This document shows, one piece after another, positions 10,010 to 30,249 of a stretch of 32,665 bases of DNA (within the stretch, counting starts at the first letter, position 1; each line of letters starts with the position of its first letter). Both the position numbers and the translations under genes were made by a program. A model generated the notes under the pieces. That model made no database searches, was not told the origin of the DNA, and worked only from the letters and a program-made list of their open reading frames with translations. This stretch comes from a virus (taxonomy: Duplodnaviria > Caudoviricetes). The stretch is from IMG/VR virus record IMGVR_UViG_3300012231_000033, positions 1 through 32,665 of that record. One strand, given 5' to 3'.

Positions 10010-11116
10010 ATGGCAAAGAAAAGAGTCGAGGCCCACCTGGTCATCCGGAAGGGCAAAGATCGGTGGCGAGTCATCATTCCGGCCGACATGAACGTTGGCA
10101 AGGTGGGCGCTGCTCGATACTTCAAGATCAAGACCGACGCCACTGCGTTCGCCCGCGACCTGGAAACGACACGCGGCGGAAACACGGGCGACTTCATGAA
10201 CCTGCCTCAGAGTTCCCAGGCGACATTGATCCGCACGTTGCAGCGGATGGACGGGGACGCGGACCGTGTCGAGGAGGCAGTCGATTATTTCCTGCGCATG
10301 CGTCCCGTCTCATCCGGCAAGCTCGTGCCTCAAGTCGTGGCCGAATGTCTCGAGCAGAAGGCAGCCAGCGGCAAACGGGCGCGATATTTGATCGCCCTCA
10401 GTTCCACCCTTGAGCGTTTCGCTGATGCCCACACCAAAGTCATGATCGAGGATATCGCGCCGATGGAGGTCGAACGCTGGCTGTCGGCCAGTCAATGGTC
10501 CCTCCGGACCCGCCGGGGATACCTGATCGACCTCCGGACCCTGTTCTCATTCGCACTCAAACGGGGCTACGTGACGACCAATCCCGCCGAAGCCGTCGAG
10601 AAACCTACGCCGCCACAGAAGACACCGGGTATCCTCACAGTTCCTGAGTGCCGCCGGTTGTTGGACTGCGCCGCAGAAAAGGACCCCGGACTGATTCCGT
10701 TTCTTGCCATTTCCCTCTTCGCCGGGATGAGACAGTCGGAAGCGAGCAAGGCTCAATGGTCATGGATCAAGGATGGCCTCATCGATGTTCCAGCGGAGAT
10801 CGCCAAAATGCATCGGCGACGATTGGTGCCCATCGTCCCTTGCCTCGGGCAATGGCTTGAACTGAAGGGCGACCTGCCGGTGAGGAACCTGACGAAGCGA
10901 TTGCGCCGGGTGCGGCGCGCGGCGAGCGTGTCATGGCCTCCCAACTGCCTGCGCCATTCGTTCTGCTCGTATGCCGTTCCCACGTTTGGTCCTGGCTGGG
11001 CGGCAAGCGCGGCCGGCCATGAAGAGCGAATGCTCAATCTTCATTACCGGGCAATCGTCAATCCGACTGCTGCCTCCGAGTTCTGGGCGATTCACCCCCC
11101 ATCCTCCAAAGCATGA
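10010..11116 (+). CDS. int: Tyrosine recombinase / phage integrase
   Basis: FAGMRQSE (R), AKM (K), NCLRHSF, AGH, LHYR (Y), TNPA core-binding motif; start likely 10010 or 9998 since the track start at 9881 lies inside attP. Confidence 0.93.
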   Translation: MAKKRVEAHLVIRKGKDRWRVIIPADMNVGKVGAARYFKIKTDATAFARDLETTRGGNTGDFMNLPQSSQATLIRTLQRMDGDADRVEEAVDYFLRMRPVSSGKLVPQVVAECLEQKAASGKRARYLIALSSTLERFADAHTKVMIEDIAPMEVERWLSASQWSLRTRRGYLIDLRTLFSFALKRGYVTTNPAEAVEKPTPPQKTPGILTVPECRRLLDCAAEKDPGLIPFLAISLFAGMRQSEASKAQWSWIKDGLIDVPAEIAKMHRRRLVPIVPCLGQWLELKGDLPVRNLTKRLRRVRRAASVSWPPNCLRHSFCSYAVPTFGPGWAASAAGHEERMLNLHYRAIVNPTAASEFWAIHPPSSKA

Positions 11117-12357
11117 AAAGCCTCATAAACATCATGTTGATAGTCGCGGCCGGCCTGATGGTGCATCCCGCCACGATACCGTACGGGCAAGTGCTCCTGC
11201 TCCTATCGACCGGCCTCATGGTCTTTGGCGCAGAGCCCGCTGAACTGAATCGGGCAGTCGTTGTTGGTGCGGTAGGTGCCGTAGCGGTAGGGGTCGCTGG
11301 GCTCAGTGCCGCATGGGAGAACCTCGACTCCATGGACGTTGCCAGGACACTGCGGAGCCTCGCGATCCCCCTCGCGTGCATGCTGGCCACTATGCTGGGG
11401 TGGAGACGATTCCGAGCAGGTTTGTGGGGCGCAGCCGTCGTCCACGGCCTCGGCTATACGGCCTTGGCAATCGCGACCGTTTATTTCTCTGCGGAGTATT
11501 TTGAGCCAGGGGTGGGAATGGTCGGAGGAGAAGGCAGGAAATTCCAAAAACTCTTCGACCCCATGTCGGTCATCTATGCGCCGGCCCTGTCCAGTATGGC
11601 TTTTGGGGCGGTTGTAGCGGGGGGCGGGTTTTTCCTGTCGAGGAACCGCGTCGTCAGAGTGGTATCGTTGCTTTGCACGGCCGCAATAGTCACGACAGCC
11701 ATGTGGCTGGGTAACAAATCCGCCACCTATTCGGTCGTGGTGTGTTCGATTTTGGCCTACCTCGTGGCGTCTCGCGGAGCCGGTTCCCTTACGCTCAAGG
11801 CGCTGGTAATCGTGGGCTCAATGGTGATGGCATGGGCCGCATTCTCGGAACGGTTCGCGGACTCAAAACGAATGGCCAGGCTCACTGATGATTGGGATTC
11901 CAGTTTTACTGGACGCACGGCTGTGTGGCGCGATGCCTTACCGGATGTCGGGCGTTACCCATTCGGCGTCACAATCGAGCGCTGGCAAGACGAGCTTGGG
12001 TTTTCGGAGCACAACACCCCACTGCAAGTCATCCGAGTTTTCGGATGGATCCCGGGCTCGATCTTCGCGATGGGCTATTGCGTGCTGGCCCTAACACCTT
12101 TCTTGCTTTGGAGGATGGGGGGGCCTTACCGATCGCGCTACGCCCCATTCGTGATAGCGGCGGCATGGCCGTGCTGCATCATTTCGGGCGTGGAATCGGT
12201 CGCAATGGGCCCGTCGGGCACGATGTACGGGTTATGCGCCATGACGGGATTTTGCATCATACACGCCACCGCTAAGCACAGTGAGGAACCAATCACCAAG
12301 CGGGCAGTAAAGAAGGACGCCAGCTTTCACCACAACCCGAACTTGGCCCGAAGATAG
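11113..12357 (+). CDS. O-antigen ligase/Wzy_C-family polytopic membrane protein
   Basis: About 10-12 hydrophobic segments; loop TGRTAVWRDAL...PFG...HNTPLQV...FGWIPG matches the R..W...HN..LQ...G..G pattern. Confidence 0.75.
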   Translation: MKSLINIMLIVAAGLMVHPATIPYGQVLLLLSTGLMVFGAEPAELNRAVVVGAVGAVAVGVAGLSAAWENLDSMDVARTLRSLAIPLACMLATMLGWRRFRAGLWGAAVVHGLGYTALAIATVYFSAEYFEPGVGMVGGEGRKFQKLFDPMSVIYAPALSSMAFGAVVAGGGFFLSRNRVVRVVSLLCTAAIVTTAMWLGNKSATYSVVVCSILAYLVASRGAGSLTLKALVIVGSMVMAWAAFSERFADSKRMARLTDDWDSSFTGRTAVWRDALPDVGRYPFGVTIERWQDELGFSEHNTPLQVIRVFGWIPGSIFAMGYCVLALTPFLLWRMGGPYRSRYAPFVIAAAWPCCIISGVESVAMGPSGTMYGLCAMTGFCIIHATAKHSEEPITKRAVKKDASFHHNPNLARR

Positions 12358-13151
12358 GCATGGACGGCGGCAAGTTCTGTTGACGTCAACTTCCGGTTGT
12401 AGACGATCAATTCGGCGAGGCGCCCGACCCATGCGTTGCCTCCAGCGCCATCGGCACCAAGCCTCATACGTTGCGACGCCAGTGCCTGCGAGTTTCCGGC
12501 CGTACTAAATGAGGCGTTGGTATAAGAGGCGACGCCATTGGTGTAGAGGAACAGGTCGGCCGCGCTGTAATCGACGAGAACCGTCGAAGCATAGAAACTG
12601 CTGCCTGCATTGCCGTTGGTGTTCCCGACATAGGAATCGGCATCCAACCGCCTGCCATCAGCCCGGAGATCTCCGTTGAATTCGCCGATCAGTGAACGTG
12701 TCGCGGTTGTGCTGGCTCCCGTGGAAACGAAGAGAAGGATCCGTAGGAATGCCGAGGTCAGCGTTCTCTGATGAACGGCGACGACGGTCATCCCTGCCAC
12801 ATTCGACGAGATGCCATGGGCGCTTGGTGGGAATTGAAGCCACTGGTTCGTCGCAAAGAAGAGAGCGTTGTACCCGTTTAGGACGCTGTTGGTGACGTAG
12901 GGCCTGGCGGTTCCCTGGTTCGTTGGGCTGTAATCATTCCCGCTGCTGTCGGTCCATGGGCTCGTTGCCGTTCCGTTGGCCCCGGCCAGTGATTCAGCTT
13001 TAAGCCAGATTTGCAGGTTGCTGATGGTGGACGGATCCGAAGGGGCCCCCGCCGCTGCATTCAATTTGCTGACGAAGCCAGGGCTCCGCAGACCGAATTG
13101 CGCATGGGCCGAGAACGCGCAAAGGAAGATGAGTAGGAACGGTTTCATCAT
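12327..13151 (-). CDS. LamG/concanavalin A-like protein with Sec signal peptide
   Basis: Start MMKPFLLIFLCAFSAHA-Q overlapping upstream stop; LQIWLKAESL, WTDSSGN, GRLAELIVYNRKLT...YLRAKFG. Confidence 0.8.
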   Translation of the reverse strand: MMKPFLLIFLCAFSAHAQFGLRSPGFVSKLNAAAGAPSDPSTISNLQIWLKAESLAGANGTATSPWTDSSGNDYSPTNQGTARPYVTNSVLNGYNALFFATNQWLQFPPSAHGISSNVAGMTVVAVHQRTLTSAFLRILLFVSTGASTTATRSLIGEFNGDLRADGRRLDADSYVGNTNGNAGSSFYASTVLVDYSAADLFLYTNGVASYTNASFSTAGNSQALASQRMRLGADGAGGNAWVGRLAELIVYNRKLTSTELAAVHAYLRAKFGLW

Positions 13152-14110
13152 TCTTCCTTGGCGATGCCGAAGGTCACGCCGGATTCCGCCGTCCCGATGC
13201 ACATGGCCGAGACCAGGACGACCTTGTTTGCCGGGATCGTAGCAATGTTGGTCCCGAGTCTCTTCCATGTGGCCGGCCACGAGAGAGTGCGGTCGACGCT
13301 GTCTCCGGCCAGGCGCATCACCGAATAGAGGACATTGGTCGCATTGCCGGGCCGATTGGTCGACTGCAACAGATTGACGTTGTTCGTGACGCTGAAGGTC
13401 AAAGCCGAGTACGCGAAATCGAGGACATGGTTCGTCGCAGCCGCGGGTACACTCGGCAGGACATTGAGGAGGGTCGATGGTGGAACAAGGGACGCCAGGT
13501 GCGCGTTGAGCCCTGGAATCATGTTCGTCGTGATCTGTTTGAAGGTCCCGTCGCCGCTGAAGAAGTTGCTCGAGGTGCCGCCGGTCAGATTGGCGACCGT
13601 GGTGAGGTTGCCGTTGGTTGCCTGATACATTGCCGGATTCGCGGCCAGGGCGGTGAGCGCCGCATTGGTGGACTGCCAGAGGTTCGACGCGACGAGGGCA
13701 GCCTGGGCGTTCGTGATGTCGGTTAGCCTGGCGATGCTGGCGTCGATCGAGGCCGCGCCCACGATGCCCGTCAATCCAAGGGTGCCGGCGAGTGTGATGG
13801 GTGAGCCCGAGAAGGAGAGCCCCGCCACGGCCGAGGTGGCGCCAACGCTCGTCACGGTACCGGAGCCGCCTCCTCCGCCACCGATGGCCTCGAGCGTGCC
13901 GCCATTATTGGTCAGGCCTGAACCGACCAGGTTGGAAAGCGATTGCCCTCCGATGGAGAGGAGCCGGACAACGCTGATGTTGGAAACCGAAAGCGTTCCC
14001 CCGATGGCGCCCGTCGGAAAGAAGACCGACAAGTCCGACTCGTTGATGAGGAGGGGAAGCTGCGCCCGGACTGGCAGGGCGAAGAGGAGGAGAGCGAGGA
14101 GAGTTCTCAT
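13148..14110 (-). CDS. Tail-fibre-like protein with Sec signal peptide
   Basis: MRTLLALLLFALPVRA-Q; GGGGGSGTVTSV and FSGDGTF fibre-type motifs; C-terminal RTLSWPATWK. Confidence 0.7.
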   Translation of the reverse strand: MRTLLALLLFALPVRAQLPLLINESDLSVFFPTGAIGGTLSVSNISVVRLLSIGGQSLSNLVGSGLTNNGGTLEAIGGGGGGSGTVTSVGATSAVAGLSFSGSPITLAGTLGLTGIVGAASIDASIARLTDITNAQAALVASNLWQSTNAALTALAANPAMYQATNGNLTTVANLTGGTSSNFFSGDGTFKQITTNMIPGLNAHLASLVPPSTLLNVLPSVPAAATNHVLDFAYSALTFSVTNNVNLLQSTNRPGNATNVLYSVMRLAGDSVDRTLSWPATWKRLGTNIATIPANKVVLVSAMCIGTAESGVTFGIAKEE

Positions 14111-14775
14111 GTGGGTTGACCGACTCTGAGGTTATAAACGCCGCCGATCTTGATAACCGTGATGGTGACCACATCGCCTTCGGTCGTTCTCAGCTTCAAC
14201 TCGGTGCCGATGAGGCCCTGATACCTCGCATCACCTCGAGCGTTGGTCAGGTACTGCGCATGATCATCGTCCGCCAGGCCTGTAAGGGCCCCGTGATCGG
14301 TGACGCCGCCGCCGCTCGAGGAGACGGGAATGATCGGGATGGGCACCGTCGTGAGCGTCGCCGAGATGGGACTGCACGCACTTGCGCCTGAGACCAGGCC
14401 ACCGGCGTAGAGCGGTGTCGTGATGGCGCCTTGCCCACCGCGGGCCGAGTCGGGCGTGACGTTCAGTTGATACTTCAGCGGCGTGAAGACGCGGCCGTCG
14501 GCCAGGAGGATCTGGACATCTGAGACGACCGTGCCCTGGAGGATGGCGGTCTTGGCCTTGGTGAGGGAGACCGTCACGATGGCCTCGGTTGCCGTCGCTT
14601 CGGTGGTGATGTCGGCCGCGGTGAGCAATGCACCATTGGGCGTTTCGCGGATGTCGCTCGAGGCCACGCAGCCGGTGAAGTCGACGGGATCGATACCGGG
14701 ATCTGCGGCCGTCACCGTCAGGATGAAGCCAGGCCAAGTGTCGCCGCGGTGCAGGCTGAATTGTCGGTTTATCAT
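14107..14775 (-). CDS. Baseplate-upper (BppU-like)/fibre attachment protein
   Basis: HRGDTW...VDFTGC...SDIR...VSLT...SDVQI pattern; DHGALTGLADDDHAQY fibre motif; start moved to 14775. Confidence 0.65.
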   Translation of the reverse strand: MINRQFSLHRGDTWPGFILTVTAADPGIDPVDFTGCVASSDIRETPNGALLTAADITTEATATEAIVTVSLTKAKTAILQGTVVSDVQILLADGRVFTPLKYQLNVTPDSARGGQGAITTPLYAGGLVSGASACSPISATLTTVPIPIIPVSSSGGGVTDHGALTGLADDDHAQYLTNARGDARYQGLIGTELKLRTTEGDVVTITVIKIGGVYNLRVGQPT

Positions 14776-14776
14776 G

Positions 14777-14926
14777 TCATTTGGGATCGAGGGTGATCCG
14801 GTGCGCCCGGTTGTTGGTGCCTTCCTGGCTGACGGAGTCGGTCCGCGTGTAGCTGCCATGACGGCCGACCCAGACGCAGCCGGCGAGGGCTGTGATGCCG
14901 ACCAGGATGACGATCCGGCGGATCAT
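14777..14926 (-). CDS. Small lipoprotein (49 aa)
   Basis: MIRRIVILVGITALAG-C lipobox; ATGA overlap with the upstream tail gene. Confidence 0.7.
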   Translation of the reverse strand: MIRRIVILVGITALAGCVWVGRHGSYTRTDSVSQEGTNNRAHRITLDPK

Positions 14927-17900
14927 AAGGCCTCGAGGTCGGCCGGCACGATGTGCAGATCCCAGACGTGATGGTTGTCCGGGTAGGTCGGCGTCGAACT
15001 GCCCGCCAGGGCTCCAATCTCCACCCGCCCGCCAGCGGCCACGGTCAACCATTTGGCCCGCGCGCCATCGCCTGGCAGGACAAGCGCGCTGCTCCACTCG
15101 CGAAGCGTGACAGCGCTCGGTCCGGTGTCATCGATCCCGCGGTCCTCGCTCATCAGCTTGCGCCACGGGATAGCCATGACACTTGCGGTGAGGCCGGTGC
15201 GGGCAATTAGGTCTGCTGACCACAAAATGCCACTCTCGTTCCCAGCGTCGGTTAAAACCCCGTCGTTGTTCCATTCTCCGCGCTGATATCGTTCGATGGC
15301 ATCAGCCGTTGTGCCGGACGACGGCTCAACCCGCCGGACAGAGAAGTCCCCGCCTCCGAGGTTTCGGATGTGGATCTGCGCCCGCATGGGACGTTCCGGC
15401 GCCATCTTGAACCGCACTTGAGGGACAACCTGAAGGGTCGGATCGTCCGTTTCTGGGATCGGAACCGCCACCGTCCGCGTGATGGTGTGGCGGAACCAGT
15501 CCCCGGGGACGTCGAGAGAAGACCCGGAGAATGTGTCCGTCTCCACCTCGAGAGACTCCGACGGAATGACGGTCGCGATGGTCGCCGCTTGGACGAACCG
15601 CGCGACGTTGAAGGCGAAGCCCAGCGGAGACAGCGCGTCGTGGATATCGTCCGGGGTGCAGTACTCGATTGCATCCCCGATGTCTGCCCACGCCCCAGGC
15701 CGCTCCGACTCGTCAACGTCATCGTCTTCGACCCCGAATCCGGTGAACGGAAACGGAAGCTCAGAGCGCGCGTAGAACTTCCGCAGCGCGATGGTTTGAA
15801 GCTCTTGGAGCGTCTCAGACACCGCGGTGCGCCGCGTGATGCCGAGCGCGTCCAGGGCGGCGTCAGTCGTTGAATCGACCCCGTAAACGTGAGCGGCGCC
15901 GTAAGGTTGCAGGTTGTCGTTGCTGGTGCCTCCAAGCCCTAGGTCCCATCCCTGCCAATACGTCAGGTCATCGAACGAGAACCCATGGACGTAGTTTTCC
16001 CACCCGCACGGCCGGACGTGGGTGATGCCGTCAACCAAGGCCGCCAGGCTGTTGAACGTCGCGGCCGTCATGCGGATTTGCATCCCGACGTTGAACTCAT
16101 CGGTGCGGATATCCGGCCCAAGCCCGCCGATGTCCGCGTTGTCGAAACAATCCACGTTGGCCACGCTCCACGGATCACCGGCCGCGACCGGAGCACCGGC
16201 AAGAACTTGGTCCGCCAGCCAGCCGTGGTCGCGGATCTTCCATGGATGCGGTCCGGTCTCGGGCTTCCCGTCGTAGGTATCGGCGGAGCCTGGCGGCTTC
16301 GAGTTCTGCGCGAACACCCGCCAGAACGACATGCCTGACATGACCTCCCCGGATGGCTCGTCGGCGATCGGAGTGTATCCGTCCCCGGCGTAATTCCACG
16401 TCCAGTCTGCGCCTGACGCCGCGCCGGCGCCGCCATCGACGCGCCAATGGGTGACCGTGGTTGAACCAGTGCCGGGAATCAGCGGGGTCCAGATGATCTC
16501 CTCAGCGCCGTGCATTCCGAGAGCGTCCCACGACGTCTGAGGGTCGGCCCCGATGGTGGGCAGCATGACGAGTTGCCACCGAGGCTCCGCCCAATCGTTC
16601 CCGCCGTCGGCCGGAGCCCCCAGTCCGATCGGCTGACCGGCGACGTACAGGCCTGGCCCCTCGCCTGAGTTCGGCGTAATGGGCGTGGCGTTGTCCCACG
16701 TGGGGTCGTCGTCGGCGCTCCACCACGACACCGTCTCCTCTGCCACCACCGCGGTGAACACTGGGTGAATGACGAGGCGCGCGAAGTCACGTTGGCCATC
16801 GAGTTGCACCAGGGACAGTCCGTCGCCGACAGTCGTGCGGAAGAAATTCCACGGGCTTACGCTTCCGATCGACGTTGACCCCCACTCCGCGACCCATTCG
16901 CGGGCCTCGATGTCGCTGCCGTCTTGCGCCCAAGATCCGCAGTAGTCCGTGTCGGCGCCCCCGCCAAGCGGCGTCCACGTCCCGTTCTTCCAGTAAGTCG
17001 AACCTGACGACTTGGTCACCTCGTAGGCGGGCCAAAGGAACAACCCAGCGAACCACTCGTCCGCAGCGGTGGCGTCCACGAACCACGGGATGAGGGTCCG
17101 GCTGCTGCTGACCGGCACGACAATTCCACCCGTCAGATTGGTCCCACGGGAAATCAAGTCGTAGGCCCAGTCCTCGCCGGTGTCTGGCGGCGGGAACCCG
17201 GAATCCGGCTCGATCACCACGCCGCGGGTTGTGTCGTCGTGCGAGACCGTCAGTCCGATTGCCTCGAGGTCATCGACCAGTTGCTCCGCGGTGACGCCAT
17301 CGAGCACCTCGCCGGAATACGTGAAGGTGTAGGTGTCGGCCGCGTCCGGGTCATCGGTGCGAGTTCGAATGACGTCGAAGGTGCCGTTCTGGATTGTCGC
17401 CGCGGCGAGCAAGCCCTCGTCTCCCGGGACCGTAAGGACGTCGTTGATGGTCGAACTGAACAGCCCTGGTCCATCGGCCAAGGCTTGCGGCCGGAACATG
17501 GATTGGATGAGTGCGACTCGGAAGATGGGGTTGGCGTTCTGGCTCCGGAGCGGCCGGTTCGCCATGTGGATTGTTGAGCCGTCCCAGATTGGCACGTCCC
17601 CCGGCAACGCCTTCGGGAAATAGTGCCGCTCGTCCGTGTTCCACAACGCGGTGCGCGATGTTCGCCGGATGCACCGGACTCCCATGGACGGCACCGCGAG
17701 CGTCTCCTCGTCGCTGAGGTTCACCGTCACCGCGTGAAGCGAAAGGTTGTGGACTCGGATCACCCCGTACTTGTCGTGGAACCAATCGAACTCCGTGGCA
17801 GCGGAAGCCTCAATGAACACGTCCGCCAACGCGTACCGATGGAACCGCTCGTGCTCGTAGGCGGCGCCGTATCGGAGCGGCAATGTGACAGTCCCAAGGT

Positions 17901-18318
17901 CAATGTCAGTGTCCTCGCGCTCGAGCACGGACGCCGCGTCTCCACCAGCGTACACGTCCTCGCTGTAATCGGTGGTGGTGATCCACGAATAGCCGTTGCC
18001 GTCCGGCCCGGTGATGGTCAGCGCAGCGGCCGCGGCCACGTGCGCATCGTGGTCGTACTGCTCCGGCCAGTTCCCGCCGTCCGGCGCCCCCGGGGTCCCC
18101 GGCACCGGAATGACGACCCTGTCCGCGTCATCACTGAGGACGTACACGGCGCCGCCAGGGGGAACCTGCTGCGCTGGGAGTGGGGCTGTGTTGAAGGCGT
18201 ACCAGGACCGGTTGCCGTTAAAAAGTCGGCCCAGGATGCGGTCGCATTCGGCGAGGAGCGCGTCGAGTTGCGAGGCTAACACCGGATCCCCGAAACCAAG
18301 TGACGGGATGTCCGGCAT
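14923..18318 (-). CDS. Large acidic tail tip/baseplate protein
   Basis: 1131-aa ORF rich in D/G/T/W downstream of the tape measure; function from position only. Confidence 0.6.
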   Translation of the reverse strand: MPDIPSLGFGDPVLASQLDALLAECDRILGRLFNGNRSWYAFNTAPLPAQQVPPGGAVYVLSDDADRVVIPVPGTPGAPDGGNWPEQYDHDAHVAAAAALTITGPDGNGYSWITTTDYSEDVYAGGDAASVLEREDTDIDLGTVTLPLRYGAAYEHERFHRYALADVFIEASAATEFDWFHDKYGVIRVHNLSLHAVTVNLSDEETLAVPSMGVRCIRRTSRTALWNTDERHYFPKALPGDVPIWDGSTIHMANRPLRSQNANPIFRVALIQSMFRPQALADGPGLFSSTINDVLTVPGDEGLLAAATIQNGTFDVIRTRTDDPDAADTYTFTYSGEVLDGVTAEQLVDDLEAIGLTVSHDDTTRGVVIEPDSGFPPPDTGEDWAYDLISRGTNLTGGIVVPVSSSRTLIPWFVDATAADEWFAGLFLWPAYEVTKSSGSTYWKNGTWTPLGGGADTDYCGSWAQDGSDIEAREWVAEWGSTSIGSVSPWNFFRTTVGDGLSLVQLDGQRDFARLVIHPVFTAVVAEETVSWWSADDDPTWDNATPITPNSGEGPGLYVAGQPIGLGAPADGGNDWAEPRWQLVMLPTIGADPQTSWDALGMHGAEEIIWTPLIPGTGSTTVTHWRVDGGAGAASGADWTWNYAGDGYTPIADEPSGEVMSGMSFWRVFAQNSKPPGSADTYDGKPETGPHPWKIRDHGWLADQVLAGAPVAAGDPWSVANVDCFDNADIGGLGPDIRTDEFNVGMQIRMTAATFNSLAALVDGITHVRPCGWENYVHGFSFDDLTYWQGWDLGLGGTSNDNLQPYGAAHVYGVDSTTDAALDALGITRRTAVSETLQELQTIALRKFYARSELPFPFTGFGVEDDDVDESERPGAWADIGDAIEYCTPDDIHDALSPLGFAFNVARFVQAATIATVIPSESLEVETDTFSGSSLDVPGDWFRHTITRTVAVPIPETDDPTLQVVPQVRFKMAPERPMRAQIHIRNLGGGDFSVRRVEPSSGTTADAIERYQRGEWNNDGVLTDAGNESGILWSADLIARTGLTASVMAIPWRKLMSEDRGIDDTGPSAVTLREWSSALVLPGDGARAKWLTVAAGGRVEIGALAGSSTPTYPDNHHVWDLHIVPADLEAL

Positions 18319-18324
18319 ATAGTT

Positions 18325-18504
18325 TCAAGCCCAATAGGCCGCGGAACCAGTGCCGCCGCCCTTGGCCTTCCTGATGGTGACGGTCGTTCCGGTGATCCCG
18401 GTGCGAATGGACAGACCGTCGCTCCGGGTAAGGCGTTGCTCGCGGGTTTTCGATCTCAGCTTGCCGATGTCCCGTGCAATCCAGCTTTTGCCGGTAAGGG
18501 CCAT
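18325..18504 (-). CDS. Small tail-module protein (59 aa, not in ORF track)
   Basis: MALTGKSWIARDIGKLRSKTREQRLTRSDGLSIRTGITGTTVTIRKAKGGGTGSAAYWA; fills the gap between two tail genes. Confidence 0.65.
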   Translation of the reverse strand: MALTGKSWIARDIGKLRSKTREQRLTRSDGLSIRTGITGTTVTIRKAKGGGTGSAAYWA

Positions 18505-18507
18505 AAA

Positions 18508-19326
18508 TCAGGGTGGCATCACGAATTCCAAAACGTCCTCTGGGTCATTCCACTCGGCCCAAGTGAAAGAGAGGGTCTCACGGCCCTGCCCGTTCGATTC
18601 AACGCTCCATTCCCGCATCGTCACCTTCCACTCCCCATTGGTTGGCATCCGATCTTTGATCTGTGTGGGGATTTCCGGATACAGGGTCTGCAAGTCCTCA
18701 CTTGTGTAGAGCGTATTGATGGCGTCGATCTTCGCCCTGTAGTTGGCTTCCTTGCGGAAAGAGGCGTCCCTGACCATGACGGGCATGTGCATGAAGGTCG
18801 TGTTCTTGCCGCGCTCAAAACGCTTCTCCATGCGCTGGATCAGGGCAAGGACATCGGGTGGCTTATCTCCGAACCAGGTCGGGCTGGGGGTGGCCTTGCC
18901 CGCCAGCAGGGCCTCAAGGTGCGCGTTGAGTTCCCGCCGTTCATCAGATGTGAGGTCAACGTCCATCATCCTCTCGAACCGGCCCACATTCCGGTAGTCA
19001 ACCGAAGTCCGTTCATCGGTCAACCGCCAGAGGATCTCGATCGGCGCCTCGATGTTCGTTTCCCAACCGGGGTCGCTCGGATCGTCAGAATCGAGGCCTT
19101 GCGTCAGCCTTAAGGCCAGGGTCCACATTGGGGATTCACCCTGGCGCCGGAGGTCGTAGCTGACGCCACGGCGATCAAGCTCTAGGTCCGCTATCGTGGA
19201 AAGACACCCTTCCCTGGTTCCTATGTAGACCCTTGTGATGTCCGGCCCGAACAGGGCGCCGGTCAGTTCATCCGGAAGCTGAATGACCGTGAACTCATTG
19301 AGATCGCCATCAATGACCATGCTCAT
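18508..19326 (-). CDS. Putative distal tail/hub protein
   Basis: Follows the tape measure gene; start moved to MSMVIDG; function from position only. Confidence 0.5.
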   Translation of the reverse strand: MSMVIDGDLNEFTVIQLPDELTGALFGPDITRVYIGTREGCLSTIADLELDRRGVSYDLRRQGESPMWTLALRLTQGLDSDDPSDPGWETNIEAPIEILWRLTDERTSVDYRNVGRFERMMDVDLTSDERRELNAHLEALLAGKATPSPTWFGDKPPDVLALIQRMEKRFERGKNTTFMHMPVMVRDASFRKEANYRAKIDAINTLYTSEDLQTLYPEIPTQIKDRMPTNGEWKVTMREWSVESNGQGRETLSFTWAEWNDPEDVLEFVMPP

Positions 19327-19336
19327 AGGTCCAGAT

Positions 19337-19996
19337 TCACCATGACCCGGATGCTCCATGCGTTGGAGCGAGGTTGTCTTTGATGCCCCTCAATTCGTTA
19401 AGCTGCGACTCTTGGAGTGAAATAAGACGCTGCAAAGCAATGGCATTGGCGGGTGAACCAAACTTCGTATTGATCAAATCGCGGAAGGCAGCCCATCCCG
19501 CCATTGATTCCCCGGGGAACCTGAGAGCACGGGTCGCTAAATTAGCCGATTTAGCGACTGCCGGGGTGGCTTCTATCTTCAACTCCTTCACAGCATCGGA
19601 TGCCTCCTTGAGACCACTTACTGTTTCCTTGTCCAGGATACCCTTGCTGCCCCTGATTGATTCCATCGCACTGACAAATTTCAGGGGATCCGTCCTTCCC
19701 ATTTCCCGTGCTTCCTCGACGCTTATGCCAAATTTCTCGGCCAACATTTCCAATTCCTGGAAGGCGTCCGTGCCGATTCCCATCCGACTGGCACCGCGAG
19801 TTATTTCACCCGCGCGACCCATCTGGCCCGTTGCGAACCCAAGCACGGCGCCCGCACCTAGAAAGCGCATGATCCCGCCCTTGAACTGCTGGCGCATCTC
19901 CTTGCCCATAGACTGGGCAATCGATTGGCCTGCTTTCGCGGCGTCTTTCTTCGCCTCAGTCCCATCGACCCTAATTTTTCCCCAGAGATTGAACAT
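19337..19996 (-). CDS. Short tape-measure-like protein
   Basis: KIRVDGTEAKK N-terminus, Ala/Gly-rich helical body, GIGTDAFQEL, C-terminal QLNELRGIKDN; follows tube and chaperone genes. Confidence 0.6.
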   Translation of the reverse strand: MFNLWGKIRVDGTEAKKDAAKAGQSIAQSMGKEMRQQFKGGIMRFLGAGAVLGFATGQMGRAGEITRGASRMGIGTDAFQELEMLAEKFGISVEEAREMGRTDPLKFVSAMESIRGSKGILDKETVSGLKEASDAVKELKIEATPAVAKSANLATRALRFPGESMAGWAAFRDLINTKFGSPANAIALQRLISLQESQLNELRGIKDNLAPTHGASGSW

Positions 19997-20534
19997 AGGC
20001 GCGCGCTGCCTCGAGTTGTTTGTCCAGGTCGCTCCTCGAGTTCCCGGTGACGGTTACTCTGCCATCGTTCTCGAGGGCGCCATAGTGATCGAGGAAGGCC
20101 TGGTCGATCGGAACGTCATCGACCCGATCCGGCGAATACCCCATGCGGATAAGGGCCACCCGCAGGTTGGCGAAGACAGGCGATCCGGATTTCGTTCCGC
20201 CCATGTCCGGCCAGATGAGGACCGGCACTTCGAGGTGGTGATCGACATACTTTGACCAGGCGGCCAGGTGTTCCGCGAAGGATTGAGAACTCAGGCGCCA
20301 GAGCCTGATGCGCCATTGGAACGCTTCCCACCATCCCCGCGGCTGGCGGAACTGGCCTGGGGGACGGCCGCAGATCCAGGCGCAGATCATCAGGTCGATC
20401 CAGTTGGCCGGGTTCCAGAGTTCCAAGCTTTCGAGGATGCGCGCGTGCCCGACCGTCAAAGGCAGGAGCACCTCGCCGCAAACCCGGTGCGGTTGCCTCC
20501 AGATGGTACGCGCGTAGATCTCCGGGAAAGTCAT
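19971..20534 (-). CDS. Putative tail assembly chaperone
   Basis: Between tube and tape measure; LLPLTVGH and C-terminal DVPIDQA; start moved to ATG overlapping upstream stop. Confidence 0.55.
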   Translation of the reverse strand: MTFPEIYARTIWRQPHRVCGEVLLPLTVGHARILESLELWNPANWIDLMICAWICGRPPGQFRQPRGWWEAFQWRIRLWRLSSQSFAEHLAAWSKYVDHHLEVPVLIWPDMGGTKSGSPVFANLRVALIRMGYSPDRVDDVPIDQAFLDHYGALENDGRVTVTGNSRSDLDKQLEAARAYVQSLGKN

Positions 20535-20950
20535 GCCCAGGTCTGCTTGATCGACCATTCAAGCGAGAGCGAGACCGTCTTCTTGTCGGTGTTGTTGGCC
20601 GAATTCGGGCAGTCTGTGACTCGCCAGAATCCGACAAGGCCCGGATGCCGGGCGGCGCTGTCGATCTTTATAAGGGTGCCGTGTTTGAGGACGGTATTGA
20701 CCAACCATCCCTCCTCTTCAGTAGCAGCGAACGGCCAACAATTGATCGTGCAGGTCTTAACCTCGCGGTTGTAGTAGATCCTCGCGACGTCCTCACCCAG
20801 GCCATCCTTCGCAACGACCTTCTCGCCCGTGTATTGGTAGCTGATGTCATTGACCAGGACCGGCCAGGCGGTGTCCTCGGCGGTCTGGATCACGACGACA
20901 TCGACTCCAAAAACAGGGATGTTTGCATCCGCATCAATCACGTAGGACAT
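20531..20950 (-). CDS. Putative tail tube protein
   Basis: 139-aa beta-rich acidic protein after terminator-like gene. Confidence 0.55.
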   Translation of the reverse strand: MSYVIDADANIPVFGVDVVVIQTAEDTAWPVLVNDISYQYTGEKVVAKDGLGEDVARIYYNREVKTCTINCWPFAATEEEGWLVNTVLKHGTLIKIDSAARHPGLVGFWRVTDCPNSANNTDKKTVSLSLEWSIKQTWA

Positions 20951-21453
20951 AGTTCGGGTTCCATCGGTTGAGATGGCTTCAGAGTGCGATCACAGACGTA
21001 GACGGGCAGCGCCCAGACATGCAGCCAGTGGCGGTCCTCGACCGCGACCGAATGCTGAATCCCGGCGGTAAGCCCGGAGAAATGGAGTCGGCCCAGGGAT
21101 GCCTCGGTCAGGCTCTTCATCAGGTCCGGACGATGGATCGCCTGGTCGATGACCCGCGCGATGCGTATGGCCTCCCCGGCTGGATCTGGAGTGTCGGTGC
21201 TCTCGTCCGCCTGGTGAAGGAACGAGACTGCAGCAATCCCTCGCCAGTTCGGCGCGGGCACGTCCTGTTCCCAGGTCTCATCCATCGCCATCGCGATGAG
21301 GCACGGGACCGGGCGCTTGCGGTCGTCATGCCCGGTCCGGATCGGGACCGGTGTCCGGCTCTCGCCGTGACGGTAGGAAAGCTCGCCCACGTCCGGGTCA
21401 CCCACGAACCCGATCCACCGCGCCAGGGCCTGCTCAACCTCGAGGGCAATCAT
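20938..21453 (-). CDS. Putative tail terminator protein
   Basis: 171 aa, PCLIAM and canonical position. Confidence 0.5.
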   Translation of the reverse strand: MIALEVEQALARWIGFVGDPDVGELSYRHGESRTPVPIRTGHDDRKRPVPCLIAMAMDETWEQDVPAPNWRGIAAVSFLHQADESTDTPDPAGEAIRIARVIDQAIHRPDLMKSLTEASLGRLHFSGLTAGIQHSVAVEDRHWLHVWALPVYVCDRTLKPSQPMEPELCPT

Positions 21454-22241
21454 AGGTTGGCCTTCTTGACGGCCATCTCGAGCTTGACCTCGAGGTCCTT
21501 GCGGAGCTTTTCGCCCACGCCCTGAAACGCCATGAACATGATGTTCCGTTCGCGGCCCGCCTTTTGCATGTAGGCGGACTTGTTCGCGAATTCGAACCAG
21601 ACGTCCTCGGAACTCTTCGGGCTTTCCTTGTAGTGGCCAGGCTCATTGAACTTCTTGGCGGCCGCGGGCCAATAACGCGCCCGGCATTTGAGTGCTGCGG
21701 CGGCCTTGTTCCAGCCACTGACACCTTTCCAGACCTGCTTCTGTCGCAGGCCGATGTAGGCCGTGATGGATCCGGGCTTGGCGATCAGGAACCGGCGGTT
21801 GCCACGCTTGGGAACCCGGCCGCCGATCCGCTGGTCTTCGTGCATCCAACGCTGAGCGATCGGGTAGACCTCGGCCTCGATGTTGGCATTCTTGAGGACG
21901 GCATTGATGGCTTCCGTCTTGCCCTCCTGCATGTACTTGCGGAGGTCCCGCGCCGCGCGGCTTTTGCCCTTCATCACCATCTTCGTGGACCCGAAGGGAA
22001 TCATCACCCGCCGGATGTCACGCGCCACGGCGCGCTTCCCCGTAGCGGTGCGCTCATTCGTCCCGGCATTACCTTTGCCGAATCCCTTCCTCCCCGGGAT
22101 CGGCGGTGTCATCGCAATGGCTTCCTCGACAACCAGGCGCGCAGCCTGGCGACACACCTCCTGGGTGGTCTTGCGGGTCACCGCGGCAAGGCCTCGGATC
22201 GTTTTCTCCCATCGCGGATTGTCCAATTCGAAGAGGAGCAT
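21450..22241 (-). CDS. Putative tail completion/neck protein (HK97 gp10-like position)
   Basis: Very basic 263 aa with IAMTPP and SGW motifs, just before terminator-like gene. Confidence 0.55.
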   Translation of the reverse strand: MLLFELDNPRWEKTIRGLAAVTRKTTQEVCRQAARLVVEEAIAMTPPIPGRKGFGKGNAGTNERTATGKRAVARDIRRVMIPFGSTKMVMKGKSRAARDLRKYMQEGKTEAINAVLKNANIEAEVYPIAQRWMHEDQRIGGRVPKRGNRRFLIAKPGSITAYIGLRQKQVWKGVSGWNKAAAALKCRARYWPAAAKKFNEPGHYKESPKSSEDVWFEFANKSAYMQKAGRERNIMFMAFQGVGEKLRKDLEVKLEMAVKKANL

Positions 22242-22259
22242 GGGTCACACCGTCTTGCT

Positions 22260-24830
22260 TCATCTAGTGGCGTTAATGACCTGAAAAGTGGTAGCGTCAA
22301 TTTTAATGAACTCAACGGTACCGTAAACGCCGACTACCAAATTACTTCCGCCAGGGCACCGCAGCGCATCCGAATTGACAAATGTAAGTGTCTTGGCCGG
22401 ATCGGTTGAGGAGTTCCTTATTAACAGCCTGCTTAAATTGTCAGCTGTAGGAGCCGTTATGTTTGTTACACTGGTTGCAAAAGAGGGAGTATGTACAACG
22501 TAGTCACCCATGAACACTAGAGTTTCATTGGTGGTATCTATTCCGCTGCCAAGAACGTCTCTATGGATTAACTGGTTTGGCCTAGCCGACGATATTGCCC
22601 AGAACAAATTGGTGTGAGTCTTTAGAAAGCTCACCATGCCGTATCCAGCCAAATTCAGGTCGCGGACACCCGGAAGCTGCATATTGGACCCCGATGCCTG
22701 AAACTTGACTTGGTTCGTATAGAGTCCGCTACCGTTTCTGAAGTTAACCACGGTACCAATGTCAATATTGTTGGCCACCAAGTTTGTTATCAGGATCGGA
22801 TGCGTTGGAGTGTAGGCGTAGTAATCTTCCGTGAATGTCAGCGTGTAGGTGTTGGTGTTTATCGATCCTGCCGAAGTCAAAACGTCCGGATTCAACAGAG
22901 TCAGATTTGTGACGGTCAAATCACCAACGGTCGCGTTAAGAAGCTTAGCGTCCGCCGTCCAAGAATCGTGTCGAATGTACGGATAAGTTCCGACGCTCGT
23001 GTGCGCCCTTGCGCCACGGCCAAGCACGTTGTTAGCAATAACCCATTGCTCATTGGTCGTCGTACCGGCGCCTTGAATCACGACACCGAATATGGCGTTG
23101 GTCGTCCACGAACTTGCCTGATTGGCTGGATTGGACACGGGAAGTCCAGCAAAAGCGGTTTCCCAATCGTTGCCAGAGAAGATGAATTGGTTCCCGATGA
23201 TCGAAACATCCTCCATTCCGTTGAACCGAGGATGAAGTCTTACCGCCCCGCCACCCGCCACATAATACGTTGACCTCTCACAATTCTGCTCTGGCCCGAT
23301 CAAGTTGCCGCTGACAAGTACCTTGTCTGCTCCGTCGTAGGTCTGGGTTCGCAACCCTAGTGCGATACCAATCGAGTTGTACCTCGTCACCAAATTTCCG
23401 CTGACGATGACCTGAGAAGCGTTGTACGGGAAAGTGTTGGTAGAATCTCCAGCGATCAGAATGCCGTATGTGTTCTGGTTGTATCCACTGCTAATAGCGG
23501 CCATGACAGGAGCGCCAGCCGGAAGAGTGCGGGCCATCGGAGGAAAAACCGTCAGGGTGTTTCCAGAAGCGGCCACGACCCTCGTCAATTCCCCAAAGTT
23601 ATTTGTCCACGGTCCAGCGTAAAGCCATTGACCCACGTCTAGGTTATTCGTGGACGCTACCGTGATATTCGTTCCGCCAATATCGACGGTGGCGGTTGAA
23701 ACCGTCTCGGCCCAATCCGGCGTGATGAACCACCCAGGCAGGTCAATCGTATTTCCAGTGATCGTCACCAAACTGGCCCCGATACCCACCTCCACTCCAG
23801 CCCACTGGCATCCGACAATCGTATTCCCGGTAATCGTGACGTCGTAGGAACCCATCTCGCCGGCGGCCGTGAAGCCTGCAACGGAGATACCGCCGTTCCG
23901 AGTTGCGAAAATGATATTGTTCGCGATCACAACCCGGTTGTTCTGGCGGGAAATCGACATCCCATTGTCATGCCCGAATATGAATCGGTTGCCCTGAATC
24001 AGGACGTCCCGGCAGTGGGTGAATCCTACGTCCATGCACTTGTAAATCAGGTTATTCTCGAATATCACCCTGCGGGCATTATAGACGAATGTCGGCAGCC
24101 CGATCATGTTCTTCACCGTGCAGTTCCGCATGACCACCGCTTCGGGGCTGGAATTGGTGATCGAGAAACTAGACGAGATGACTGCCTGCATCCCGTAGGT
24201 CGTCCCTGCTCGCCAGTCCGCGTAGGACTGGGGGTACTGGACGATGTTCGACCAGCCCTTTGTTCGGTCTGCCTCACCCTCGAAAACGATTCCGTCTATA
24301 TTGATAGAGTTCGTGAACCCCTTTTCGATGCGAACAAACACCCCAAGCGGAACCGCATGCTTTATCACGACCGCACCACCTCCTGATCCCTTAACAATGA
24401 AGTCAGTACCGAGAGGCGTGTAGCAATCCAACAACTGTGTGTAAGTGCCGGGGGAATACCTGACCGGCATTCCACGGGCTGCAACGACAGCGTTAGACAG
24501 TGTTTCACCTGCATAGGTGGAGCCAGCTCCGTCTATAATCCCCCAGGCCCGAAGATCGCCGTCCCATGGGTGGACATATCGCCCCACTGATTTGCCTGGG
24601 TGCGCGATGGTGATGGCGTTGGTCGGAAGGCTGTTGGTTGGATCCCACCTGAACCGCTTTGGCCCGCCCCAATCGCCGGGCACCGCAAGTCCGTCGACGT
24701 CCGTGTACGCCTCCGTCGCGCTGGGCTGGAGGGACAGAAGATGGTTGATGTTGGTGGCTACCCGCACCTGGGCGGCCCGGGTAGGCAACACTAACAGGAC
24801 AAGGACGACCAGGATGACGAGTCGCAACAT
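22260..24830 (-). CDS. Right-handed beta-helix tailspike/depolymerase-like protein with Sec signal peptide
   Basis: MLRLVILVVLVLLVLPTRAA-Q; repeated coils VIFENN, VLIQGN, VVIANN, VTITGN x2, VIVSGN, VLVSGN; duplicated C-terminal domain. Confidence 0.85.
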   Translation of the reverse strand: MLRLVILVVLVLLVLPTRAAQVRVATNINHLLSLQPSATEAYTDVDGLAVPGDWGGPKRFRWDPTNSLPTNAITIAHPGKSVGRYVHPWDGDLRAWGIIDGAGSTYAGETLSNAVVAARGMPVRYSPGTYTQLLDCYTPLGTDFIVKGSGGGAVVIKHAVPLGVFVRIEKGFTNSINIDGIVFEGEADRTKGWSNIVQYPQSYADWRAGTTYGMQAVISSSFSITNSSPEAVVMRNCTVKNMIGLPTFVYNARRVIFENNLIYKCMDVGFTHCRDVLIQGNRFIFGHDNGMSISRQNNRVVIANNIIFATRNGGISVAGFTAAGEMGSYDVTITGNTIVGCQWAGVEVGIGASLVTITGNTIDLPGWFITPDWAETVSTATVDIGGTNITVASTNNLDVGQWLYAGPWTNNFGELTRVVAASGNTLTVFPPMARTLPAGAPVMAAISSGYNQNTYGILIAGDSTNTFPYNASQVIVSGNLVTRYNSIGIALGLRTQTYDGADKVLVSGNLIGPEQNCERSTYYVAGGGAVRLHPRFNGMEDVSIIGNQFIFSGNDWETAFAGLPVSNPANQASSWTTNAIFGVVIQGAGTTTNEQWVIANNVLGRGARAHTSVGTYPYIRHDSWTADAKLLNATVGDLTVTNLTLLNPDVLTSAGSINTNTYTLTFTEDYYAYTPTHPILITNLVANNIDIGTVVNFRNGSGLYTNQVKFQASGSNMQLPGVRDLNLAGYGMVSFLKTHTNLFWAISSARPNQLIHRDVLGSGIDTTNETLVFMGDYVVHTPSFATSVTNITAPTADNLSRLLIRNSSTDPAKTLTFVNSDALRCPGGSNLVVGVYGTVEFIKIDATTFQVINATR

Positions 24831-24833
24831 GAC

Positions 24834-25385: not shown

Positions 25386-25388
25386 GGT

Positions 25389-25718
25389 TTATCCCGTCTC
25401 TGTTTGGGCTGCCTCGAGCGTAAGACTCCACCGCTGGTCATTCTTTCCGACCCGGGCGACTCTGCAGTCCAGGCCGTAAACCCGAAGGCGCATGCCTGGG
25501 GTCGGGGTCAGTCCCACCATCGCGAATTCGGCGAGCTCAACCCCGAGAATCGCGTCGGCATCGAAGGTGAATCCGCCAGAGCCAAGTTGGTTGGAGTAGC
25601 GCAGTTCATCGCAATTGCCGATGAAGGTGCGGGAATAGCCATCGACCGTGAAGGTGATGGCATACTCCTGGCGAAGCGCCGCCCGGCCGGCGTCCAGCAA
25701 TGCGCGCGCCTGGCTCAT
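25389..25718 (-). CDS. Putative head-tail joining/head closure protein
   Basis: 109 aa from MSQARALL, directly after the capsid gene; PTPGMRL..CRVARV. Confidence 0.55.
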   Translation of the reverse strand: MSQARALLDAGRAALRQEYAITFTVDGYSRTFIGNCDELRYSNQLGSGGFTFDADAILGVELAEFAMVGLTPTPGMRLRVYGLDCRVARVGKNDQRWSLTLEAAQTETG

Positions 25719-25723
25719 GGCGC

Positions 25724-26593
25724 TTACGCGCTCTTGATCAGGACACCCTTGCAAATCACGCCAAGGGCGGCGCCGAAGATGATGTCGTAGCTTCCCCAGA
25801 GGGCCCTGGTCGCACTCGAGCACCAGAGGTTAAACTGAACGGTCAGGCCAGTGCCCGGGATCGTGATGTTCTGCTGCTCGATGATCGTGCCGCAGGCCGG
25901 AGGCTTCGCTGGAACACCGGACACAACCGCGATGGCTTCCGGGCAGAACCCGAAACCGTATGTGTTCGCATCGGCGGTAGCCCAAAGACTGTGCTCACTG
26001 ATCGACTGGAACCCAAAACCGCCAGGCCCCACACCAGGGATCGGCATGCAACAGCCGGTCGCCTGGTACATGAGCTTGGACATCGCCGTCGGATCCAAAA
26101 GCAGATGCTTCGGCTGGCACAGAAGCTTCGCGTAGGCGCTGCCCACAGTCGCCGGGGTGAAGCTCGCAATAGCCGAGACCACGACATTCGCGACCGGGAA
26201 ACCAAGGGTCGGGGTCGCACTGTTCTTGATAATCGGCAGGACAACATTCCAGACGGCCGTTGCAAGAGCAGTTGCGTTGATCCTAGCGAGCTGCTCCAGG
26301 CGGAATCCCTGGTTGTACTGCGCATGGGTGATGTGGAACGGCTGGCTAATGTGGTGCGGCGTAACCAGGATGTTGGCCAGGGTCGTGTCGCCAGCTTCAA
26401 AGTTGGTCGGATCCGTCAGGGTCGTCGAACCGGCGGTCGCCACCGGGATCGAAACGGGCTTGAGCGGAGCCAGTGGATCGGGAGAACACTCATTGGCGAA
26501 GTTATTGAGTGGCCCGAGGACCTGGCAGATTGAGTCCATGGCTGCATCGCAACAGGTGTTGCAGATCAGTCCGGAGGAAAAGGTGTTTGGCAT
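25724..26593 (-). CDS. Major capsid protein (Cys-rich)
   Basis: Follows protease/scaffold; MPNTF start; FCPEAIAVV, GLTVQ, YDIIFGAALG pattern of HK97-fold coats; alternative start at MARKSK upstream. Confidence 0.8.
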   Translation of the reverse strand: MPNTFSSGLICNTCCDAAMDSICQVLGPLNNFANECSPDPLAPLKPVSIPVATAGSTTLTDPTNFEAGDTTLANILVTPHHISQPFHITHAQYNQGFRLEQLARINATALATAVWNVVLPIIKNSATPTLGFPVANVVVSAIASFTPATVGSAYAKLLCQPKHLLLDPTAMSKLMYQATGCCMPIPGVGPGGFGFQSISEHSLWATADANTYGFGFCPEAIAVVSGVPAKPPACGTIIEQQNITIPGTGLTVQFNLWCSSATRALWGSYDIIFGAALGVICKGVLIKSA

Positions 26594-26661
26594 GGCAGGT
26601 GTTGGAGTTGGAAATGGAGGTGGAAGCGGGGTCGGGCTGGCTTTCGATTTTCGAGCCATCG

Positions 26662-29255: not shown

Positions 29256-29263
29256 GGGAATGA

Positions 29264-29638
29264 TCAGCAGCCACACCCGCGAAGGCCATAGTTGCTCTTG
29301 ACCAGGTAACGGCCGGTCACGGCGGTCGCCGAGAGAAGGCAGTTGAACTTCTCCTCGTCGGTGCCCTCGCATTCCAAACACACCTCGGCGGTCAACGCCT
29401 GGAACTGGACCGATTCATCCTGAGGGACAACGTCGCTGTCGGCGTCGCCATAGGTGGCACTCTCACCGGCCCGAGAGGCGGAGGTGACGCGCCGGCCGGC
29501 GCCGGCAGTAGCCCCTTTCAAGGAAGCCGCCGCCTGGGTCTGGAGGTACTGACAGAAGGGAATCCCGCAGGCCTGTGCCTCAGCGTACCACGTCCGGAGG
29601 AGGATCCTCTTTTGCGCGGTGGAGAGGCTCGATGCCAT
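29264..29638 (-). CDS. Putative head-tail adaptor (gpW position), Cys-rich
   Basis: Directly before portal; VTSASRAGESATY hairpin-like motif; 7 Cys in 124 aa. Confidence 0.55.
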   Translation of the reverse strand: MASSLSTAQKRILLRTWYAEAQACGIPFCQYLQTQAAASLKGATAGAGRRVTSASRAGESATYGDADSDVVPQDESVQFQALTAEVCLECEGTDEEKFNCLLSATAVTGRYLVKSNYGLRGCGC

Positions 29639-29654
29639 CGATGGCGTGGAGCCT

Positions 29655-29685
29655 AGAAACGAAAGAGCCCGGAACGCATCCGGGC
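29655..29685 (-). terminator. Possible intrinsic terminator
   Basis: GCCCGGA-TGCGT-TCCGGGC then TCTTTCGTTT on the minus strand; imperfect U-tract. Confidence 0.4.
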
Positions 29686-29716
29686 CAATGGGTTCAATTC
29701 GGGTCGCTTGTGAGCG

Positions 29717-30180: not shown

Positions 30181-30183
30181 GAG

Positions 30184-30249
30184 CTAACACCCGCTCGCGC
30201 ATCGGCGCACGGCCGGGAGCAGATAACGGATGCAGGTCCAGAAGTTCAC
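30184..30249 (-). CDS. Possible 21-aa Cys-rich peptide
   Basis: GTG overlapping the terminase stop; MNFWTCIRYLLPAVRRCASGC; ends 3 nt before next ATG. Confidence 0.35.
   Translation of the reverse strand: MNFWTCIRYLLPAVRRCASGC

Follow-up and report, generated by a model that had tools for sequence, protein, structure and literature searches.

Sec-type leaders on the spike, fibre and LamG genes of an uncultured freshwater phage suggest export of putative receptor-binding proteins that probably join the particle at lysis

In the textbook view, assembly of tailed phage particles is completed in the cytoplasm. In the uncultured freshwater phage represented by virus record IMGVR_UViG_3300012231_000033 (the whole record of 32,665 bases, termed the window in the following), three genes of the late operon begin with Sec-type leaders, namely those for a β-helix tailspike-like protein (spike), a fibre-like protein (fibre) and a LamG-domain protein (Table 1). 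Export of their products to the host periplasm, as proposed in a first-pass annotation, appears well supported by conserved leaders and by an excess of the dipeptide Thr-Asn in the mature chains. The best reading, favoured here with moderate confidence, is that the three proteins are exported, modified at Thr-Asn in the periplasm and docked on finished particles at lysis. Its observed parts are the leaders, their conservation, the Thr-Asn excess, a tailspike fold without head-binding domain, and the gene order.

The three reading frames lie on the minus strand at the positions assigned to them in that annotation. At each N-terminus, a basic residue is followed by a hydrophobic core that leads to an A-x-A site, i.e., the features of Sec/signal peptidase I (SPI) substrates: MLR-LVILVVLVLLVLP-TRA/AQ in the spike (cleavage after Ala19 or Ala20), MR-TLLALLLFALP-VRA/Q in the fibre and MMK-PFLLIFLCAFS-AHA/Q in the LamG protein (slash, predicted cleavage site), export and cleavage being deduced from established Sec/SPI rules. 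Leaders were called with an own rule-based scorer rather than SignalP. The scorer, for which no calibration set of secreted proteins was used, overlooks some leaders (those of L065/L066, for instance). It passes 4 of the 23 late minus-strand genes (spike, fibre, LamG and a small lipoprotein gene at 14777-14926) and one of the 22 other genes of the window, an 8-transmembrane-helix (8-TM) Wzy-like protein considered a false positive. Among control windows, 23 of 4,469 starting at internal Met residues (0.5 %) and none of 1,240 from the mature parts of the three proteins passed. The claimed ATGA coupling of the fibre and LamG genes to their upstream genes was confirmed for both start/stop overlaps, and the spike start is positioned 3 nucleotides (nt) past an upstream TAG. 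In-frame alternative starts are GTG/TTG codons 14, 15 and 22 in the spike, TTG 27 in the fibre and TTG 30 in the LamG gene. Use of starts downstream of the hydrophobic segments, which had been named as an objection, would remove residues conserved in relatives of the fibre and LamG proteins, whereas GTG22 is a possible true start of the spike.

Judged from the homologues, the leaders are conserved as a functional feature and not as a sequence: in five close relatives of the fibre, the leader is 41-71 % identical as compared to 70-78 % over the next 60 residues. The check proposed in the first-pass annotation, whether homologues keep the signal, turned out positive for spike and fibre, with a mixed result for LamG. 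Among 57 spike proteins (including the query; retrieved with spike residues 1-120, so that the leader in the query biases the set, and carrying no genomic context, some possibly being cellular), 46 pass the scorer, 8 more are leader-like by eye and 3 have cut starts. On the mature part alone 53 of the 57 are still significant, 42 of which pass the scorer, and a small residue followed by Gln is found within positions 11-34 in 45 of the 57. Inspection of 14 fibre homologues by eye revealed 11 leaders, two sequences cut at the start and one without leader.

The Thr-Asn motif, as well as the lipoprotein and the adaptor genes treated below, was absent from the first-pass annotation. Relative to their own shuffles, mature leader-bearing proteins contain 2.85 times the expected Thr-Asn versus 1.08 in other proteins of the same genomes (23 entries, including two partial duplicates, versus 294), with 18 versus 7.1 expected in the spike, 10 versus 2.8 in the fibre and 6 versus 1.6 in the LamG protein. 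In a matched set of long T/S/G/N-rich proteins, 361 occurrences versus 132 expected were counted in 20 leader-bearing members (2.73), whereas 78 leaderless members showed 269 versus 274 (0.98), which rules out Thr-Asn as a general fibre feature. No other dipeptide is as enriched among the spike homologues (828 versus 311 expected); Asn-Thr (0.92 of expectation), N-x-T (1.08) and Ser-Asn are near expectation, N-x-S is at 0.87, and F, I, L and V are favoured about 1.7-fold at the second residue after the Asn. When the shared module is removed, the excess persists (2.42, with 50 of 53 proteins exceeding 1.5), and it is also present in 28 unrelated bodies (2.46-fold) and in a membrane-anchored non-structural protein of the podovirus-like record G010 (10 versus 1.7 expected). 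Since the excess tracks the leader and not the fibre type, the leaders appear to be used.

Neither canonical N-glycosylation sequons (N-x-S/T, 0.96 of expectation) nor the Bacteroidota O-glycosylation motif, D-(S/T)-(A/I/L/V/M/T) (0.73), is in excess. Disulfide folding was rejected as the purpose of export: the mature fibre, LamG protein and spike contain one, no and seven Cys, respectively, and pooled Cys amounts to 0.3 % in leader-bearing versus 1.0 % in leaderless proteins; with cysteines this scarce, such a purpose is unlikely here, and modification in the host periplasm appears the likelier one. Thr-Asn may be the site recognised by an extracytoplasmic enzyme of the host, and glycosylation at T-N-x-hydrophobic sites is, from motif statistics, the most likely modification.

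A right-handed β-helix preceded by a neck domain is predicted for the spike from an AlphaFold2 (AF2) model (monomer), which is reliable up to about residue 310. The Fri1 tailspike gp49 could be superimposed on residues 22-466 (Z 22.7, root-mean-square deviation 4.0, 354 aligned residues); the top Foldseek match is WceF, aligned from its residue 167 in the neck domain (Z 22.1), and CBA120 TSP2 is matched as well. From about residue 22 on, the spike aligns with the neck domain common to WceF and CBA120 tailspikes, and the type II fibre gp52 of Kp7 starts with the same module (aligned from gp52 residue 14). Among the matches listed, this N-terminal module is included only by phage tailspikes and WceF, whereas cellular β-helix enzymes align from about residue 88. 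According to the model, the mature chain begins at the neck-type module and a head-binding or anchor domain is absent, as is the case for Kp7 gp52 and for secondary spikes of branched receptor-binding systems. Homologues of the spike carry End_N_terminal and K1-lyase domains.

At five of five loci examined, the gene directly ahead of the module-bearing spike is leaderless and its product ends in an Asp-Asp-Gly module, and an adaptor role may be assigned to it; its counterpart in G003 weakly matches a tail fibre family (phrog_4128, E 0.0075), and G001, which has a leaderless fibre, contains no Asp-Asp-Gly module gene. A profile of the leaderless adaptor N-domain (4 sequences) matches residues 19-103 of a leader-bearing 869-amino-acid (aa) protein of L116 (E 6.5e-11), the mature end of which starts with ATV where leaderless homologues start with M-ATV. 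From this non-circular result it follows that an anchor-type domain itself would be exported there. No Pfam, PHROG or PDB sequence match indicated a T4 gp10-like docking domain in the adaptor, PDB sequence searches with both modules gave no matches, and the single-sequence fold of the adaptor reached a pLDDT of 32. Readthrough into an adaptor-spike fusion would be in frame in the window, but was rejected since four other junctions are ATGA overlaps (three) or a 2-nt gap (one). The 786-aa adaptor candidate of G010 (L084, 1772-4132, plus strand) also has a metallophosphoesterase and an Ig domain.

The first dozen mature residues of the LamG protein are kept in L174 and L175, in L174 with a different LamG domain behind them; the protein is likely a fibre-tip adhesin composed of a constant N-terminal peptide and a swappable lectin domain. 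Weak homologues of the 222-aa leaderless protein (presumably BppU-like) precede leaderless fibres in L044 and L047. Small lipoproteins similar to the 49-aa one, possibly an outer spanin-like protein, are encoded in G001, G002, G003 and L174.

Leader-bearing genes were found within the structural operons of G003, G006, G007, G008, L065/L066, L076 and L116-L119 (five in succession in L119), and leader-bearing fibres also in the podovirus-like records G009 and G010 and the Mu-like fragment L081 (types judged by gene order). Such fibres thus seem to occur in no fewer than three types of phage, which probably infect Verrucomicrobiota. Scans with the capsid family yielded 112 and 280 matching stretches, the best 80 of which were kept each time; 28 of 136 capsid loci are leaderless, 10 leader-bearing and 98 too short to label, with L066, which is in fact leader-bearing, counted here as leaderless. 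On a capsid tree of 21 rows (P8625 left out, L066 set to leader-bearing) the label changes four times, and a single clade is rejected (approximately unbiased test, p-AU 3e-73). In G001, the nearest relative of the window, the spike locus is occupied by a 742-aa fibre gene without leader, and leader-bearing and leaderless cassettes exchange at one locus between nearest relatives (window/G001, G003/G002), so that the same scaffold takes either cassette. From these comparisons the leader trait appears widespread and mobile. No leaderless fibre candidate was seen in the examined stretches of G009 and G010.

Fibres of T4 and P22 attach late to finished particles. For the present phage, one may propose that head, tail and leaderless adaptors are assembled in the cytoplasm, whereas spike, fibre and LamG tip would be exported and, after cleavage, modification and folding in the periplasm, would dock on the leaderless adaptors once the inner membrane fails at lysis. 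By analogy to branched receptor-binding systems, the 24834-25385 product would hold the spike via its C-terminal module, the 14107-14775 product would hold the fibre, and the LamG protein would cap the fibre via its constant N-terminal peptide. A two-compartment assembly line, the parts of which are glycosylated by an undescribed host system at Thr-Asn-x-hydrophobic and clipped on at lysis, is suggested tentatively and with somewhat less than even confidence for tailed phages of this host group. The export proposed in the first-pass annotation has good support, and the second part of the proposal, joining the particle at lysis, is the likelier fate of the three proteins.

Known systems resemble this plan in part. 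Filamentous phage coat proteins are virion proteins that pass Sec and reside in the inner membrane until they are assembled as the particle is extruded, whereas soluble parts are predicted here; spikes and adaptors of branched systems assemble in the cytoplasm. Branched receptor-binding comprises G7C gp66/gp63.1, the K1-5 gp37 adaptor, KP32 group A and CBA120 TSP1-4, and anchor-less spikes docking on adaptors are described (PMC6872550); as proposed for the window, an anchor-less β-helix spike stands beside an anchored adaptor. WceF of Pantoea stewartii (PDB 6tgf; PMC7949094) is an exported trimer with the tailspike fold that is also predicted for the spike, but its gene belongs to a chromosomal polysaccharide cluster and the protein is Tat-exported with a P22-type head domain, whereas the spike is encoded in a phage late operon, carries a leader of the Sec type and lacks a head domain. 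The signal-peptide-bearing, mosaic, phage-like MAT fibres of Bdellovibrio resemble the fibre, but are bacterial cell-surface adhesins (PMC10769870) with an own conserved N-terminal domain; they were compared with the fibre by description only.

Among phages, leaders on spike or fibre genes of the structural module were found in Tunturi 1 (PP887698; gp12-14, 16 and 17) and Bcep781 (NC_004333; gp49, annotated there as 'possible tail fiber; possible signal peptide domain'), and the term signal peptides is absent from the main text of the Tunturi paper (PMC11924767). In contrast to the Cys-poor proteins here, their large leader-bearing proteins are Cys-rich (10-32 Cys) without Thr-Asn excess (observed/expected 15/11.9 in Tunturi gp12, 1/6.2 in gp13, 5/7.6 in gp14, 9/14.3 in gp17 and 4/6.1 in Bcep781 gp49), which rules out Thr-Asn as a feature of all exported fibres. 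The cultured Verrucomicrobia phage P8625 (NC_029047) has an equal genome size and head module and shares the capsid family; signal peptides were not found in it and are not reported in the accessible part of its description (PMC4642752), and Thr-Asn in its fibres is at expectation (3/3.9 and 4/4.1). Q-rule phage proteins are described as being of unknown function (PMC10367356), and Verrucomicrobia are unmentioned in the available text of another Q-rule paper (PMC5837995). A literature search, outside of which lay most subscription journals, retrieved no description of virion fibres that tailed phages export, of the assembly route or of the Thr-Asn motif. The comparison suggests that the branched receptor-binding plan is extended here by export and by a candidate motif for modification, a combination not found described.

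The rival that survives best, although considered rather unlikely, was raised as an alternative in the first-pass annotation and assumes that the proteins are exported but never reach the particle: the spike would be a periplasmic or released depolymerase loosening the capsule for exit or for neighbours, and fibre and lectin would act as decoys or host surface modifiers. It draws on WceF, since this top match, an enzyme of tailspike fold, is exported and acts on the polysaccharide of the cell that makes it, on soluble phage depolymerases as proposed in the literature (PMC6872550), on MAT fibres as signal-peptide fibres of a cell (PMC10769870), on Q-rule proteins of Porphyromonas phages, read as outer-membrane modifiers (PMC10367356), and on genes for secreted proteins that G001 and G003 carry at the tail end in opposite orientation. 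Attachment to the particle is favoured by the co-orientation and coupling of the genes in the late operon, where they replace leaderless fibres at the same loci, by anchor-type domains directly behind leaders (L116), by the constant anchor and variable tip of the LamG protein, and by G009 and G010, which would otherwise seem to be without fibres.

Several observations weigh against docking on the particle. WceF is a cellular enzyme exported via Tat, although it retains the head and neck domains of a tailspike; a spike without own anchor fits a free enzyme too, and the 1131-aa leaderless protein could serve receptor binding alone. The likeness of adaptor and spike modules is weak (hhalign probability 1.7; profile cross-match at best E 0.51), and the five adaptor modules were picked by eye, which renders their profile scores circular. 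G010 apparently has two modules and two exported fibres, the second module at only E 4.4. Among 12 LamG homologues, four have full leaders, one starts inside the leader and seven are without leader. Finally, no endolysin was recognised in the window by Pfam, PHROG and further family searches, which may miss a divergent one.

Display on the outer membrane or on vesicles, aided by the lipoprotein, with the particle leaving or attaching via vesicles instead of by ordinary lysis, is regarded as improbable. It could build on the lack of a recognised endolysin, the conservation of the lipoprotein in the tail operon and the finding of MAT fibres in a vesicle (PMC10769870), but neither a membrane anchor nor a sorting tail was seen in the three mature proteins, the window has ordinary head and tail modules, and a divergent endolysin may exist, with G004 and G005 encoding a leader-bearing lysozyme-like protein (Destabilase E 0.0099, under cut-off). 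Least probable of all is that the leaders are unused, due to starts further down or to retention of the hydrophobic ends as assembly segments in a cytoplasmic assembly: in-frame GTG/TTG codons after or inside the leaders and the lack of a positive-control set for the scorer would allow for it, but ATGA coupling fixes two starts, the basic end, core and A-x-A site are kept as letters change, the mature start of the L116 protein corresponds to M-ATV of leaderless homologues, and the Thr-Asn excess follows the leader.

Table 1 Features of the window relevant to the predicted export of receptor-binding proteins
Feature	Position	Strand	Basis and remarks
Tyrosine integrase	10010..11116	+	Family matches; marks temperate phage, gives host lead
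Wzy_C (O-antigen ligase-like) membrane protein, 8 TM	11113..12357	+	PF04932 E 6e-5, under cut-off; converges on LamG gene
LamG-domain protein, 274 aa	12327..13151	-	PF13385; phrog_10356 virion structural protein E 3e-15
LamG predicted signal peptide, 16-17 aa	13101..13151	-	Own scorer; start overlaps fibre stop (ATGA)
Fibre-like protein, 320 aa, modules common to other leader-bearing fibres	13148..14110	-	No family match; "fibre" rests on position, composition and modular sharing; 1 Cys
Fibre predicted signal peptide, 16 aa	14063..14110	-	Own scorer; start overlaps upstream stop (ATGA)
Leaderless protein ahead of fibre, 222 aa, second adaptor candidate	14107..14775	-	phrog_1084 unknown function; kept in L174 and L175
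Predicted lipoprotein, 49 aa, lipobox LAG/C	14777..14926	-	Scorer; follows putative hub gene
Leaderless protein, 1131 aa, baseplate-hub or central-spike position	14923..18318	-	Role by position only; no family match
Seven leaderless tail-module genes (neck, terminator, tube, chaperone, short tape measure)	18325..22241	-	Position only; syntenic in G001; no family matches
β-helix tailspike-like protein, 856 aa: leader, neck-type module (about residues 22-90), β-helix	22260..24830	-	Pfam Beta_helix E 4e-10; phrog_29706 tail spike; AF2 model and fold searches; 7 Cys
Spike predicted Sec/SPI signal peptide, 19 aa (may be 20)	24774..24830	-	Own scorer; homologues
Leaderless adaptor candidate, 183 aa: N-domain shared with fibre-locus proteins of relatives, C-terminal Asp-Asp-Gly module of about 65 aa	24834..25385	-	Profile comparison
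Head and packaging module, leaderless: terminase (gpA type), lambda-type portal, Clp protease, capsid (25724-26590)	25389..32487	-	Pfam, PHROG

The window encodes a gpA-type terminase, a lambda-type portal, a Clp protease, a capsid protein, a tail module, a primase, a helicase and an integrase (Pfam, PHROG) and represents a temperate, probably long-tailed phage. The tape-measure candidate (19337-19996, minus strand) has just 219 aa (253-271 aa in G001 and G003), from which a very short non-contractile tail would follow. In the 1131-aa protein, Thr-Asn occurs once versus 2.8 expected. The capsid protein and its closest relatives have many conserved Cys-Cys pairs, which are absent from distant family members. 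Further membrane candidates are encoded at 7202-7399 (Thivi_2564 family) and 29890-30180 (DUF1360).

The host is likely a member of Verrucomicrobiota, because five of seven integrase look-alike clusters among the matches listed are mostly from this phylum (a lead only) and the capsid-family profile matches P8625 gp11 (E 8.6e-12). A genome scan led to two bins, neither of them identifying the host; tblastn against cultured phages gave no match for capsid or spike, and no relatives emerged when viral contigs were scanned for the LamG, tube, adaptor and spike proteins.

The Wzy-like gene, a similar counterpart of which is present in L174, is probably a lysogenic-conversion gene. A 24-nt inverted repeat (11095-11118 and 12099-12122; 96 % complementary, 980 nt apart) extends from the integrase stop into this gene and could bound an invertible segment acting as its switch. 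The repeat was not found in L174, L087 and L089, and no inversion joint was detected in the single DNA run checked, which is possibly the source and shows no differences from the window over 9000-26000; no RNA run was listed as containing the sequence. At the position of the Wzy-like gene, i.e., the tail end, secreted genes are located in L087 (3948-4586, minus strand; G001, Imm_superinfect) and L089 (7244-7987, minus strand; G003). Leader-bearing genes of 146-148 aa follow the capsid gene or lie between tail genes in L075 (7250-7693, 9419-9865) and L076 (7707-8147), and their products are candidates for exported head-decoration proteins. The lysozyme-like proteins of G004 and G005 (L090, 12421-12804; L091, 16319-16708; both minus strand) contain no Thr-Asn and are candidates for secreted endolysins.

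If true, an exported receptor-binding branch would add a compartment to phage morphogenesis and make infectivity reliant on the host's Sec system and periplasmic enzymes, which would also offer host defence a new point of attack; assembly in two compartments would yield virions with host-modified fibres. An as yet uncharacterised modification outside the cytoplasm of the host, probably a verrucomicrobium, is indicated by the Thr-Asn excess, which also allows exported proteins to be recognised from their sequence. For annotation, a signal peptide should not be taken as reason to set a tail-operon gene aside as a moron.

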